A DNA stretch of 64,000 nucleotides from Parcubacteria group bacterium GW2011_GWC2_48_17 (lineage in GTDB: Bacteria > Patescibacteriota > Minisyncoccia > Phycocordibacterales > UBA10002). The translations under genes were made by a program, and so were the position numbers. Under the pieces are notes generated by a model. The model searched no databases and was not told the DNA's origin. It saw only the letters and a program-made list of their open reading frames with translations. This document shows, piece after piece, positions 3,744 through 9,122 of the stretch (within the stretch, counting starts at the first letter, position 1; each line of letters begins with the position of its first letter). Location of the stretch: positions 1,528 to 65,527 of the forward strand of contig LCPL01000010.1 of assembly GCA_001003605.1 (NCBI GenBank). Reading direction: 5' to 3'.

Positions 3744-3923
3744 TTACTGATAATCACATAACTCGTTAACGGTTTTCATGGCCTTGTTAAGGCATTATTC
3801 GCGTTAAGTAGATTTGTGAAGATCAGTAGGTAATGATGCGAAAGATCGGAACCATTACAGCGAGTTGACAATATGTGTATATCCATTGTAATATCACCTT
3901 CAGCACTTTGAAACTTTTGCGAA

Positions 3924-3974
3924 TTCGCCACAGCAGAAAGCGGCTTAATGTAGGCCATTTTCTGCTGTGGCGAA
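3924..3974. promoter_or_regulatory. 16-bp perfect stem (TTCGCCACAGCAGAAA / TTTCTGCTGTGGCGAA) with a 19-nt loop, intergenic upstream of the DGR target gene
   Basis: Perfect inverted repeat read directly; no ORF in 3744-4070. Confidence 0.6.
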
Positions 3975-4070: not shown

Positions 4071-4790
4071 TTGAAAAACAACATAGACTGGAAGCAGTTC
4101 GGACAGTTTCTTAAAATGGTGGTAGATTTGTTCAAAATCATCACCACAACCTTCAAAGAGCAGAAAACCGGTCCGGAGATTCTTGAATGGATTACCGGCG
4201 CGGGCCAGAAGGCTTTTGCGGAGAAGTTTTTAGTACCGCTTGGCGAGGCGTACCAAGCTCACCTTCAGAGGGAGCAGAAACGGGAGAAGCCGGAGCCGCT
4301 TCGCATGAAGGCCAACCTCAATGCCGACCCCTCGCTTCCATTTGACGGAGCGAAGTTTGAAGGCAACAAAGGTGAGAAACATCTTCGCCAAGGCGAGGTG
4401 GAACTGGAGTATCGTTCGGATGAAGACGAACTGTATGTGAACAGACGAAATCTCGTTCCGTTCTTATCAGACAAACAGCTCGATGGAAAGACCGTGAAAG
4501 GATTCAAACTTCATCCCGAAGCCGAAGCGAACAGTCCCACGAACGCAACGCTGGCTGATGTTCTGTATGCGCATCAGGAATTCATTCCGAAGAAATATCG
4601 AGACAGAGTATGGTTTTTCTGGGCGACGATTTTCAGCGGCGCGGACGGCAACCTCTTTGTCCGGTCTCTCTACTGGGGTGGCGAGCGGTGGAGTCGGGGC
4701 TACGTTTGGCTCGGCGACGACTGGTATGAGCGCGACCCGTCGGCTTCGCTCGCAAAGCAGAACTTAGACCTTGAGGTTAAGTCCTTTTGA
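4071..4790 (+). CDS. DGR variable target protein, C-type-lectin/FGE-like fold with C-terminal variable region
   Basis: C-terminus ...WFFWATIFSGADGNLFVRSLYWGGERWSRGYVWLGDDWYERDPSAS... overlaps the VR; variable codons correspond to AAC/AAT in the TR. Confidence 0.8.
   Translation: MKNNIDWKQFGQFLKMVVDLFKIITTTFKEQKTGPEILEWITGAGQKAFAEKFLVPLGEAYQAHLQREQKREKPEPLRMKANLNADPSLPFDGAKFEGNKGEKHLRQGEVELEYRSDEDELYVNRRNLVPFLSDKQLDGKTVKGFKLHPEAEANSPTNATLADVLYAHQEFIPKKYRDRVWFFWATIFSGADGNLFVRSLYWGGERWSRGYVWLGDDWYERDPSASLAKQNLDLEVKSF
4631..4755 (+). repeat. DGR variable repeat (VR), 125 bp
   Basis: 108/125 identical to the TR; all 17 mismatches sit opposite TR adenines; the last 21 nt are identical and GC-rich (IMH-like). 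Confidence 0.9.
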
Positions 4791-5121
4791 ACTTGAGACC
4801 TTAGTACTTCCCCGATTTTGTCAGTGATGACAAGGTTGGGGATTTTTGTTATCCTACAGATGATAGTAGGTGAGCATCAGTACGGGTTTACGGATTCGTA
4901 CCACCGAATTCAGTATCCATACATTGAGAGCGTTTAGAATCAGGGTTCTAAGCGGAGGATGTATGCAGACACTTCACAAAAAGATGAAGCTACTTGGTAT
5001 GAAGCACTAAGGCATTAAACCCGGTAAGTGAATCAAAAAATTCGTCTGCTGAATGAGATGCCGAAGACTTTCCAGCCTTTCGAGTACTCGGGAGGCGGTG
5101 GCACAGATGGTGCTTCATATG

Positions 5122-5246
5122 TTTCAGCGACGCGGACGGCAACCTCTATGTCCGGTATCTCTACTGGAATGGCAAGCAGTGGAATCGGAACTACAATTGG
5201 CTCGACAACGACTGGAATGAGCACAACCCGTCGGCTTCGCTCGCAA
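5122..5246 (+). repeat. DGR template repeat (TR), noncoding
   Basis: Invariant copy that keeps the adenines; in the VR reading frame it encodes AAC/AAT-rich ...NGKQWNRNYNWLDNDWNEHN... Confidence 0.9.
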
Positions 5247-5252
5247 CTCTCT

Positions 5253-5675
5253 TCATTTCTCCGCCCCGACTTTTGTCGGGACGGAGTTTTGCTTGATGAG
5301 CTGATTATGCCAACCGCCGAGTTGTTGCCCTGCGCCCGCAAGCGGTTCTGACACGGCAACATACTTCTTGGTATCAATTGATTTGAGTTCCCAGCTTACA
5401 TACAAAAATACTTTTGCTGTATCCAATTTAACGATTGCCTTATGCACAAACGGCCGCTTCTGTTCTTTTGGGAGAAATACTGCTGTGAGAGCGGCCTCAA
5501 TTGTTTCAACAAGGAGAGTGTCGATCTTTTCTCCGAGAGAGTATTTGGTTTCTTTCGGAAAGAGGCGAAGAGTCTCATGCCAGAGCTTGTAAGCGGCAGT
5601 GAGTTTTTCTACCACTGGCAAAATCCGTAGGGGGGGGGTATTCTTTTGTGTATGGGACGGATTCAATTCACGCAT
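5253..5675 (-). CDS. avd: Avd-like accessory variability determinant (four-helix-bundle, TIGR02436-like)
   Basis: ...WHETLRLFPKETKYSLGEKIDTLLVETIEAAL...GQQLGGWHNQL matches the FPKEEKYSLG...GW family pattern; the true start is probably downstream of the C9 tract, for example TTG near 5600. Confidence 0.55.
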   Translation of the reverse strand: MRELNPSHTQKNTPPLRILPVVEKLTAAYKLWHETLRLFPKETKYSLGEKIDTLLVETIEAALTAVFLPKEQKRPFVHKAIVKLDTAKVFLYVSWELKSIDTKKYVAVSEPLAGAGQQLGGWHNQLIKQNSVPTKVGAEK

Positions 5676-6644
5676 ACCTATGAGGAAATTATTTCTGTTG
5701 AAAATCTACTGGAGGCGTGGAAAGAGTTTAAGCGGGGAAAGGCGAAAAAAGAAGAAGTGCAAAGGTTCCAGCTTCGACTCATGGAGCACATCCTAGCGCT
5801 CCATCGAGACTTACGCAATCGAACCTACACACACGGGCCATACAAACATTTCAGAATTACCGACCCGAAACCACGAGACATTCATAAAGCGAATGTGCGC
5901 GACCGCTTACTTCACCATGCGCTCTACCGGAAACTCTATCCGTTCTTCGACCGCACTTTTATTGCCGATTCATTCTCCTGCCGATTGAAAAAGGGAACGC
6001 ATAGTGCGATGAACCGCTTCCGTGCCTTTGCGTACCAAGCGAGCAAGAATCACACGCAGACCTGCTTTGCGCTCAAGTGTGATATACGGAAGTTCTTTGC
6101 CAACATTGACCACGAGATTTTGTTCTCGATTCTTTCCATCTACATTCCCGATACTTCTATACTGATGCTCCTTAAAAATATCGTGGAGAGTTTTACAAGC
6201 GGAAAAACGGAAGCAGGCCTCCCCCTCGGCAACCTTTCGTCACAGCTTTTGGTGAATATCTACCTAAACGAGTTTGACCAATTCGTGAAGCACCGGCTCA
6301 AAGTGAAATACTACATTCGTTACGCTGATGATTTTGTTATTCTTTCCCATGGTAAAAGTCGGTTGGAAAGAATAGTACGATATATCGTACTATTCATGCG
6401 CGAGAGATTGAGACTTGAACTTCATCAAGGCAAAGTCTTCATCCACACCATTGCCTCCGGCGTTGATTTTCTCGGTTGGGTGCATTTTCCCAATCATAGG
6501 GTGCTTCGGACGAGTACAAAAAAGCGAATGTTCCGGCGTTTACAGGAAGCACCAAGCGAAGAAGTGGCCATCTCCTACCTCGGACTGCTTTCGCATGGAA
6601 ATGGGGCTCTACTACAAAAAAGGATACGCGAGAGTTATAGTTAG
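5646..6644 (+). CDS. DGR reverse transcriptase
   Basis: ENLLEAWKEFKRGKAKK N-terminus, IRYADDFVIL RT motif and length near 330 aa; the first ATG is at 5652, while the track start at 5646 is TTG. Confidence 0.9.
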   Translation: MCMGRIQFTHTYEEIISVENLLEAWKEFKRGKAKKEEVQRFQLRLMEHILALHRDLRNRTYTHGPYKHFRITDPKPRDIHKANVRDRLLHHALYRKLYPFFDRTFIADSFSCRLKKGTHSAMNRFRAFAYQASKNHTQTCFALKCDIRKFFANIDHEILFSILSIYIPDTSILMLLKNIVESFTSGKTEAGLPLGNLSSQLLVNIYLNEFDQFVKHRLKVKYYIRYADDFVILSHGKSRLERIVRYIVLFMRERLRLELHQGKVFIHTIASGVDFLGWVHFPNHRVLRTSTKKRMFRRLQEAPSEEVAISYLGLLSHGNGALLQKRIRESYS

Positions 6645-7790: not shown

Positions 7791-9122
7791 ATGGCGATAC
7801 TACCAGAAGAATTCCGTTCTCTTATAAACGCTAGACAATCCATCCGCTTTTTCGACAATGCGCGGACGATTCCCACGGATGTGATTGAAGCGATTATTGA
7901 CGATGCCCAGCAATCTCCGAATGACTGCAATCACCAGAGTTGGAAATTTGTCGTCGTAACCGACCACGCTCTTAAAGAGAGATTAGTGGACGCAGCCGGC
8001 AGCTGCGAACCCGCTAAACGCGCGTCGGTGCTTATTGTGCCACTTATAGAATCAGGGTGGAATCATAACAAGTTCTCAATCATACAGACTCTCGCGGCGG
8101 CGACTCACACGCTCATACTTTCCGCGAAGACGCGCGGAATTGAAAGCGTATGGATGGCCGGTATTGGGAATGTGGAGACGATACGAAAACTCTTACATAT
8201 TCCGCCCGCGTACATAATAGATTGCTTCGTTGGTCTTGGGTATGCAAAAGCAGAGCAGATGCCGTGGCCAAAAGCGCCGCGGCAGCCAGTAAAGAAAATC
8301 TGCTCGTTTAATCGTTTTGCGTTTGACCCGGATACCACCTACCCGCTTAAAAAATCAACCAAGTATGATTTTTGGAAAATCAGCAATCAGCGCAATCCGT
8401 ACGCTCTTTGGCATCCGAGGGATTGGACCATACGGCAAATCGCCTTTTTTCGCGGCAACGCGGTCTGGGCCAATTCTCCTTCGCCGACGCTTCACAAAAG
8501 CAGACGCTTGTCGCCGGAGTTTGACAAGGAAATAGAGTTCGCTTCTGCTCATCTTAAGGTCGGCAAGACACTCATCATGCTTCCGTATTCCGGAGCATAT
8601 TCCGCCGCGCTACTCAAAGAGGTTCCTGATGCGCTCATCACTCACTTTGAGCTTTCAGAGAATCACGAACCGATTATCAGAAAGAGAATGAAAGAAGAAG
8701 GAATCACGAATGAAATTCCATTTATTGCGGATGATGAGCTAAGTATCGCGCTTCCCGACAATTCTTTTGACAATGTACTCATTTTTCAAGGACTTGAAAT
8801 ATTGCCGGAGCCTTCGCGGCTTATCAAAGAAACAGAGCGCCTGCTTAAAATGAACGGACGCCTCTTCATAACCTGCCGCAACAAATGGTCGTGGTTTTTT
8901 CTCAAATTCTTGTGGGTGACCAAAAAGGAAACGGTGTGGAACTTCGGCCCATACTGGCCGCTTTCGCCGACGAAACTTAGAGGTATGCTACGCGATAAAT
9001 TTACAGGTAACTTTCTGGGAATCTCACCCCTCCCGAGACACATCGGAAGGCATGTCAAAAAATGGCCGTTTAATTACTTTTCCCGCCTCATCGTCTTCAT
9101 TGGCGAAAGAACTAAGATATGA
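7791..9122 (+). CDS. fusion of a nitroreductase-family domain with a class I SAM methyltransferase
   Basis: N-terminus SIRFFDNARTIPTDVIEAIIDDAQQSPNDCNHQSWKFVVV (nitroreductase fold); C-terminus DNSFDNVLIFQGLEILPEP...LKMNGRLFIT (MTase). Confidence 0.6.
   Translation: MAILPEEFRSLINARQSIRFFDNARTIPTDVIEAIIDDAQQSPNDCNHQSWKFVVVTDHALKERLVDAAGSCEPAKRASVLIVPLIESGWNHNKFSIIQTLAAATHTLILSAKTRGIESVWMAGIGNVETIRKLLHIPPAYIIDCFVGLGYAKAEQMPWPKAPRQPVKKICSFNRFAFDPDTTYPLKKSTKYDFWKISNQRNPYALWHPRDWTIRQIAFFRGNAVWANSPSPTLHKSRRLSPEFDKEIEFASAHLKVGKTLIMLPYSGAYSAALLKEVPDALITHFELSENHEPIIRKRMKEEGITNEIPFIADDELSIALPDNSFDNVLIFQGLEILPEPSRLIKETERLLKMNGRLFITCRNKWSWFFLKFLWVTKKETVWNFGPYWPLSPTKLRGMLRDKFTGNFLGISPLPRHIGRHVKKWPFNYFSRLIVFIGERTKI

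Follow-up and report, generated by a model that had tools for sequence, protein, structure and literature searches.

Among diversity-generating retroelements (DGRs), 90% of those described from the Candidate Phyla Radiation (CPR) belong to the B3 type, whose cassette is written as template repeat (TR)-(avd)-reverse transcriptase (RT), the parentheses marking the reverse strand (Wu et al. 2018, NAR 46:11; PMC5758913). The locus considered here, a complete, bona fide DGR at 4071–6644 of a stretch of 64,000 nucleotides (nt) from contig LCPL01000010.1 of Parcubacteria group bacterium GW2011_GWC2_48_17 (henceforth the window), conforms to that type, with the TR at 5122–5246 on the plus strand, avd at 5253–5621 on the minus strand and RT at 5652–6644 on the plus strand. 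With the published B3 systems (PMC5758913) it shares the parts' order and their orientation (target with its variable repeat (VR), TR, reversed avd, RT), the CPR/Parcubacteria host, the Rifle groundwater provenance and the adenine-specific differences between TR and VR, and there is no architectural difference between the two. The subject of this text is a run of nine Gs in the roughly 30-nt intergenic region between avd and RT, which may be a slippage-prone dial on the expression of the retroelement's enzymes. For such tracts the closest described parallels come from bacterial phase variation. A poly-G tract lies between the -35 and -10 boxes of porA in Neisseria meningitidis, and a (TA)n repeat occupies the divergent promoter of hifA and hifB in Haemophilus influenzae. 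The meningococcal porA, fetA and nadA promoters carry poly-G or poly-C tracts termed transcriptional simple-sequence repeats (SSRs), whose repeat number decides whether expression is low, intermediate or high and which mutate at rates above 1e-5 per division (PMC6735796).

The first-pass annotation of this DNA had placed avd on the minus strand, divergent from RT and antiparallel to both the TR and the target gene, and the coordinates bear this out. It had also regarded the inverted avd as an oddity and proposed a comparison with related DGRs, which points the other way, as the orientation is that of the published B3 architecture. Two sets of relatives were fetched by their RTs: 80 loci from species-representative genomes, with RTs 61–75% identical to that of the window, and 80 metagenome loci, with RTs 60–78% identical. 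Wherever upstream DNA and an Avd match were available, avd was found immediately upstream of RT on the minus strand, in 77/77 genome and 69/69 metagenome loci, that is, in all 146 scorable relatives.

The G9 tract (C9 on the avd strand) occupies 5630–5638, exact to the base as first annotated, and is separated by 13 nt (TATTCTTTTGTGT) from the RT ATG at 5652. It is the sole G or C run of at least 7 nt in the 64-kb window, the next longest being five runs of G6 and two of C6. A run of at least seven Gs was found at the avd/RT junction in 69 of the 78 loci scored in the genome set (77 genome loci and the window) and in 58 of the 69 scored metagenome loci, so that 127 of 147 junctions (~86%) carry a tract of G7–G14; a further seven have (GT)n, three from the genome set (L039, L047, L070) and four from the metagenomes (L143, L158, L161, L187). 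The 147 loci are not all independent: a few records or closely matching lineages occur in both sets (L076 and L176 probably represent one contig, and L039 with L143 and L047 with L158 are near-identical lineages). The run lengths centre on a mode of G10, with G7 in 4 loci, G8 in 20, G9 in 31, G10 in 50, G11 in 14, G12 in 6, and G13 and G14 in one each. Such a run is far beyond chance: a junction of 40–60 nt holds one in 69 of 78 loci of the genome set, against seven G or C runs of at least 7 nt in the ~600 kb of flanking DNA from the same set, none of them beside avd or RT. Some of the long G runs away from avd and RT in the relatives' flanks (L030:265, G9; L091:1294, G10; L045:657, G8) may be further simple-sequence tracts in their own right.

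The tract has a definite phylogenetic reach. More distant B3-type DGRs, on viral contigs whose RTs are 47–58% identical to that of the window (L223–L226), have the reversed avd and no run, and two canonical co-directional DGRs have no run either; the tract is therefore an addition of a CPR subclade, neither part of the core mechanism nor required by the architecture. Within the relatives, a subgroup of four loci (L071, L173, L181, L192) has the avd start and the RT ATG abutting, with neither an intergenic region nor a tract (...GGCAAAGATG / ...GATAAAGATG / ...GATGTAGATG), and supplies natural tract-less comparators. A scan of a metagenome contig collection for the exact pattern of the junction with a variable gap gave no match, the lineage evidently not being in that collection.

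What is conserved in position is variable in length. The first-pass annotation had predicted that a homopolymer of this kind would be prone to slippage, and at the level of assembled consensus sequences this holds both in the window's own population and in other lineages. For the former, 19 contigs, 99.5–100% identical to the window and amounting to 59 kb aligned in total, were compared: five distinct contigs have G8 and two have G10, the others having G9, all with identical flanks. By sample, the Rifle consensus is G8 in SRR1658462, SRR2090153 and SAMN03842431, G10 in SRR1658468 and JGI 3300009285, and G9 in SRR3989344 and SRR1658344. All contigs on record, when sorted by the gene models they carry, divide into roughly 22 with G9 and 7 with other lengths. 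Across the 59 kb the only indels are the tract itself, one scaffolding N-gap and one insertion of ~150 nt at 3917–3920. Runs of A6 or T6 in the same alignments, amounting to 80 contig-instances, never vary, the alignments containing no other long run that could serve as a stricter control. Moreover, G8 is found on at least two backgrounds: two contigs (L002, L016) combine it with the insertion and a single-nucleotide polymorphism (SNP), 3922A>G, while a third (L015) has neither.

Further pairs emerged when all fetched loci were clustered by their flanks at 96% identity or more over 200 nt. Two loci with no mismatch over 2,211 aligned nt (L150/L152) have G9 and G10, and two with none over 5,765 nt (L168/L170) have G10 and G8. 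The loci with dinucleotide repeats behave alike, with a difference of one GT unit between L047 and L158 (19 mismatches in 3,435 nt) and of 10 nt of repeat between L039 and L143 (26 mismatches in 3,676 nt). The tract is thus conserved across the clade and length-polymorphic between near-identical genomes.

Two other kinds of variation were seen in these contigs. The ~150-nt insertion (L002 4116–4269; also L016) lies just upstream of an inverted repeat with 24-nt arms at 3924–3974, in the leader of the target gene. Dense clusters of SNPs interrupt otherwise identical contigs at 6389–6450 (L015; 9 in 60 nt) and 8399–8867 (L002 and L014; ~45 in 470 nt), a pattern that suggests short tracts of inter-strain recombination, one of them inside the RT gene.

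With respect to the genes on either side, the first-pass annotation had left two placements for the tract: within the longest avd open reading frame (ORF), where it would encode Pro-Pro, or in the avd leader. The leader placement is upheld and the coding one is not, because the Avd profiles and the Avd homologues of 146 loci begin downstream of the C run. The longest minus-strand ORF (5253–5675, 140 aa) matches Pfam bAvd (E 4.6e-7) only from residue 23, at profile position 5, and the 120-aa form matches NCBIfam DivGenRetAVD (E 1.5e-13) over residues 2–103, at profile positions 4–103; both matches are under the curated cut-offs, yet they have full-length coverage. A PDB sequence search with Avd gave no match. 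The homologues align from an LPV(V/L)EK motif, which in the window corresponds to TTG 5621 or GTG 5615, past the C run. In the 127 run-bearing relatives the Avd N-terminus reads (I/L)-L-P-V-(L/V)-E-K, with the Leu codon being TTG in about half of them (5621–5619 in the window). The likeliest avd start is accordingly TTG 5621, giving 122 aa, whereas gene callers prefer GTG 5615 and 120 aa. The 140-aa ORF, which would overlap RT by 24 nt, is probably not a real avd product: its ATG at 5675 results from reading a conserved His codon close to the N-terminus of RT in reverse complement, and among the relatives the avd frame extends without a stop across the C run as far as an upstream start in 50/127 loci and to an ATG in 38/127, the latter 30% being about the one in three expected by chance. 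On the other strand, a TAG stop in the RT frame (5628–5630) stands at the 5' edge of the run, so the window's tract is not translated as part of RT. Public gene calls nevertheless follow the tract: contigs with G9 receive a 140-aa Avd and often an RT cut to 287 aa, and those with G8 or G10 a 120-aa Avd and a 330-aa RT. The public 140-aa and 287-aa models can thus be regarded as artefacts of a tract that chances to be in frame. The differing avd calls in one related lineage (P0050; 110 aa, 67 aa or none) were set aside as caller noise, the underlying DNA being identical.

What follows the run offers a clue to its possible function. In the window and its closest relatives it is succeeded at once by a TAnnnT box, 7 nt and the RT start, which in the window reads TATTCT-TTTGTGT-ATG. 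This geometry of run, TAnnnT, N7 and ATG or GTG recurs in 33/127 loci (ATG in 29, GTG in 4), with a gap of exactly 7 nt in 32 of the 33, while shuffles of the 40 nt downstream of the run yielded on average 0.67 TAnnnT-N7-start matches and at most 5. Such a layout is what would be expected of a -10 box serving a leaderless mRNA or one with a 1-nt leader, and the comparison suggests a leaderless-type transcript as the source of RT in this clade. The predicted RT promoter of the window, put together by comparison with relatives, would consist of a -35-like hexamer CTGGCA at 5615–5620 on the plus strand, which shares its positions with the opening codons of avd on the opposite strand, and a -10-like hexamer TATTCT at 5639–5644, likewise on the plus strand, which abuts the tract and lies 7 nt before the RT ATG. 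Across the 33 class A loci CTGGCA or a free-standing TTGCGA/TTGCAA occurs 15–19 nt upstream of the TAnnnT box. Some 20 loci have their avd start 15 nt further off, and there TTGCGA or TTGCAA stands 16–19 nt upstream of the box and 7–9 nt from the run; the better match in these loci fits with the hexamer being free of coding constraint there. The part of the predicted spacer that is not G is nearly constant at 7–10 nt, and the run length therefore sets the total, 17 bp with G8, 18 with G9 and 19 with G10 in the window's population. Three related loci (L056, L063, L098) keep the TAnnnT-N7 geometry and have ATT where the ATG is expected.

Two other roles for the run were entertained and rejected. 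As a Shine-Dalgarno (SD) site for RT it would stand 13 nt from the ATG, and by a loose criterion SD-like sequence precedes just 9 of the 60 window ORFs of at least 150 aa; this CPR genome seems to be largely SD-independent. Pairing of the G run with a conserved C run in the TR read-through RNA was likewise discarded, a C run of at least 5 nt within 700 nt upstream being present in 14/113 loci.

Taken together, the tract resembles by analogy the repeats of bacterial contingency loci, being over-represented, conserved in position and not in length, exchanged in some lineages for another type of repeat and the fastest-changing site between near-identical genomes. On this likeness rests the proposal, to which we would assign a probability of about one half, that the G9 represents a single allele of a repeat, conserved and prone to slippage, that forms part of the spacer of the RT promoter and acts as a stochastic dial on mutagenic retrohoming. 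The tract would be a simple-sequence repeat in the ~30 bp of control DNA from which avd and RT diverge in B3 CPR-type DGRs, and in the window's subclade it would supply the 3' half of a sigma-70-type promoter's spacer, in the predicted order CTGGCA (5615–5620), spacer AAATCCGTA plus Gn, TATTCT (5639–5644), 7 nt and ATG (5652), with an RT mRNA that would be leaderless or nearly so. Gain or loss of one G by replication slippage would set the spacer at 17 (G8), 18 (G9) or 19 bp (G10), and RT transcription would in consequence rise or fall, heritably and reversibly, with an optimum expected near the 17-bp spacer of G8. Expression of avd might be affected too, because the tract, as a C-rich stretch, lies 8 nt upstream of where avd starts and because RNA polymerase bound to the RT promoter would overlie that start. 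What the sequences show is the anatomy, the conservation of the tract and its polymorphism; the promoter, which is assigned by comparison, the response of expression to tract length and the reversibility of that response are inferred. A wider form of the proposal, under which DGR hypermutation throughout a large CPR clade would be gated by a contingency locus, a conserved, hypermutable poly-G tract or (GT)n in the avd-RT control region, that stochastically sets the expression of RT and Avd, is put forward more tentatively and falls somewhat short of even odds.

Several observations weigh against the promoter-spacer dial. The promoter match in the window is weak (CTGGCA-18-TATTCT, 4/6 and 4/6, or 8/12), a consensus promoter scan of the window did not call this pair, and a search by eye of the minus strand for an avd promoter found no conserved -10/-35 pair. 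About three quarters of the relatives have no TAnnnT-N7-ATG, the run being followed, for example, by TTAAAAG or CGTAGAAGG. Moreover, in 33/127, among them L024, L031, L038, L043, L049, L050, L056, L063, L093 and L122–L172, no ATG, GTG or TTG separates the run from the conserved start of the RT protein (IQF.H.YE), as is also the case in P0054, P0084 and P0102, so the promoter-spacer mechanism is not the whole story for the family. The polymorphism is not universal at the consensus level either, given that G10 is invariant in three lineages, P0050 (10 contigs), P0099 (6) and P0067 (7), for which the RT used in retrieval has an ORF beginning past the tract; P0050 and P0067 co-occur with the window's population in the same samples. 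All evidence for polymorphism comes from assembly consensus sequences, and for some of these identical sequencing runs were assembled more than once. Look-ups with the 140-aa Avd or the 287-aa RT favour G9, and those for P0054, P0084 and P0102 are uninformative on variation, the RT ORF there spanning the tract so that retrieval by exact protein fixes its length. Finally, G8 and G9 contigs have the same VR consensus, and hence no link between tract length and diversification is visible.

Other accounts of the tract have to be set against these facts. It is possible, if on balance unlikely, that the tract is a fixed functional element whose length changes are tolerated noise and not a switch; candidates for its role would be a stiff GC-rich promoter spacer, an insulator between divergent promoters, the site of a regulator or a binding site for Avd-RT. 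The narrow distribution of lengths (8–11 nt in ~90% of loci), the constancy of G10 over the 23 contigs of the three invariant lineages and the tight placement relative to the Avd N-terminus, mostly 11–18 nt, are all what such an element would lead one to expect. It accords poorly with the seven loci that have (GT)n instead, in which repetitiveness and not sequence is the common property, with the tract being the fastest-changing site in four lineages, including the two pairs with zero substitutions, and with the related B3 DGRs that work without a tract. A more improbable alternative takes the C run or (AC)n of the avd strand as an unstructured C-rich leader that aids the initiation of avd translation in an organism that does not use SD sites. 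CA repeats enhance translation in E. coli, the genome is indeed one without SD usage, the run ends 7–9 nt before the TTG/Leu-Pro region of the avd start in most loci, and both C runs and AC repeats are free of G and would be unstructured. However, no other gene in the 64 kb has a C run of at least 7 nt, and in ~20 loci the run lies 26–29 nt from the avd start yet abuts the TAnnnT box on the RT side; the length polymorphism would also be left unexplained.

Still less can be said for a translational frameshift switch, which we hold to be very improbable in either of its forms. In one, avd would be read from ATG 5675, with the C9 as Pro-Pro-Pro and G8 or G10 throwing it out of frame; the 140-aa ORF is indeed open at G9 and is used by gene callers, but an open frame with an upstream ATG occurs about as often as chance would have it, that ATG being accounted for by the RT His codon, and the Avd profiles begin past the run. 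In the other, the RT ORF of some relatives would run through the tract as poly-Gly, as gene callers have it in the loci with no start after the run (P0054, P0084, P0102). In the window this form is countered by the in-frame TAG at the 5' edge of the run, followed by a conserved ATG after it, and for the no-start loci by the fact that closely related members of this group (class C) have G8, G10 and G11, which are not multiples of three apart, so that a simple in-frame reading is not conserved. The reading least deserving of credence is that the length differences are errors of sequencing or assembly at a difficult homopolymer. Poly-G is error-prone on Illumina instruments, some metagenome contigs terminate exactly at the run (L120, L123, L149), and some assemblies derive from the same runs. 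Against this, the reproduction of G10 in 23 contigs from many samples and by three assemblers is a strong argument that the lengths are not artefactual; in addition, G8 is linked to a strain-specific SNP and insertion, one pair differs by 2 nt (G10 versus G8), and the (GT)n loci differ by whole repeat units.

The remaining anatomy of the locus is that of an ordinary DGR. The same sequence is present in contig DOPE01000015.1 of GCA_003514705.1, a groundwater genome of the Parcubacteria group, and the DGR locus recurs across many Rifle aquifer assemblies. The target gene (4071–4790, plus strand; 239 aa from a TTG) matched no family in a profile search of Pfam and NCBIfam, and it contains at its 3' end the VR (4631–4755, plus strand), a 125-nt direct repeat that is 86% identical to the TR. 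The latter, also of 125 nt, lies 491 nt downstream of the VR and ends 7 nt from the avd stop on the opposite strand. All 17 differences between the two fall at TR adenines (17/17; 13 A>G, 3 A>T and 1 A>C), and they affect codon positions 1 and 2 only. Just 3' of the VR and the target stop a GC-rich, terminator-like hairpin of 15 pairs with a T run (4809–4842, plus strand) occupies the place of the inverted repeat by which DGR targets are recognized, or of a terminator; the TR has no equivalent hairpin at the matching offset. The RT (330 aa; plus strand) matches Pfam RVT_1 (E 3.8e-23) and is aligned by its relatives from residues 1–3; thousands of CPR homologues of it were found. Its translation contains LGNLSSQ, which fits the (I/L)GxxxSQ motif that we take to be typical of DGR RTs. 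An Rfam search of the window returned no known RNA family, at the avd/RT junction or elsewhere.

Across the contigs of this population the TR is invariant save for single SNPs in L005 and L017, and the VR consensus is the same in 10 contigs. One assembly only (L006; JGI 3300002502) has N at window positions 4732 and 4734, two VR sites matching TR adenines, which hints at VR polymorphism within the sample. A 22-nt direct repeat, TAAGGCATTA...GTAAGT, occurs in two copies that are 82% identical, one at 3788–3809, ~280 nt upstream of the target start, and the other at 5008–5029, ~110 nt upstream of the TR in the non-coding stretch of 330 nt that separates target from TR; the two copies may represent a regulatory or RNA element common to both sites, or a product of chance. 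A hairpin, CCCGAC-TTTT-GTCGGG at 5266–5281, lies 20 nt past the end of the TR and, on the opposite strand, within the 3' end of avd. This is where the RNA spacer that follows the TR would start, so the stretch may double as Avd coding sequence and DGR RNA structure. In a related lineage a segment of ~550 nt is found twice at ~92% identity (L168 72–619 and L170 2239–2785), upstream of and overlapping the DGR region, and may be a second copy of the target and VR or a duplicated part of the cassette.

The regulation of DGRs in their native hosts is, to our knowledge, largely unknown. Unrestrained mutagenic retrohoming should be costly, and a conserved slippage tract would offer a simple genetic answer. 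Were the proposal true, the expression of the mutator would be set by reversible length mutation, and lineages could switch between diversifying and stabilising the target protein. Under its wider form each population would be a heritable mix of cells with high, low or zero retrohoming. This would amount to a second-order switch of evolvability, undescribed for any DGR as far as the searchable literature shows: in searchable full text, which does not cover the main paper on CPR DGRs (Paul et al. 2017), no paper joins DGRs with poly-G, homopolymers, SSRs or phase variation at the RT/avd junction. The comparison also yields a conserved predicted promoter architecture for a group of uncultivated CPR bacteria.

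The B3 architecture has been described before, as have switches made of promoter SSRs; what appears to be novel is such a repeat, conserved, in control of a DGR's enzymes. With respect to the prototype DGR, that of Bordetella phage BPP-1 (mtd-avd-TR-brt), the window shares an RT with (I/L)GxxxSQ, an Avd of the four-helix-bundle family, and a TR/VR pair that is mutagenized at adenines and has a GC-rich end. In BPP-1, however, avd is co-directional and upstream of the TR, whereas the window's TR is followed by RNA that is antisense to avd; we know of no homopolymer tract in the phage element. The parallels for the tract itself lie with the phase-variable loci. Like the promoter SSRs of Neisseria, the window has a G run of ~8–11 nt in a promoter spacer, here a predicted one, whose repeat number differs between near-identical strains and from which a graded outcome would be expected, and as in hif the tract lies between divergent genes. 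The difference resides in the host and in what is controlled: Neisseria and hif tracts govern surface antigens, whereas the window's tract would govern, through a predicted promoter, the enzymes of a hypermutation system in an uncultivated CPR host.

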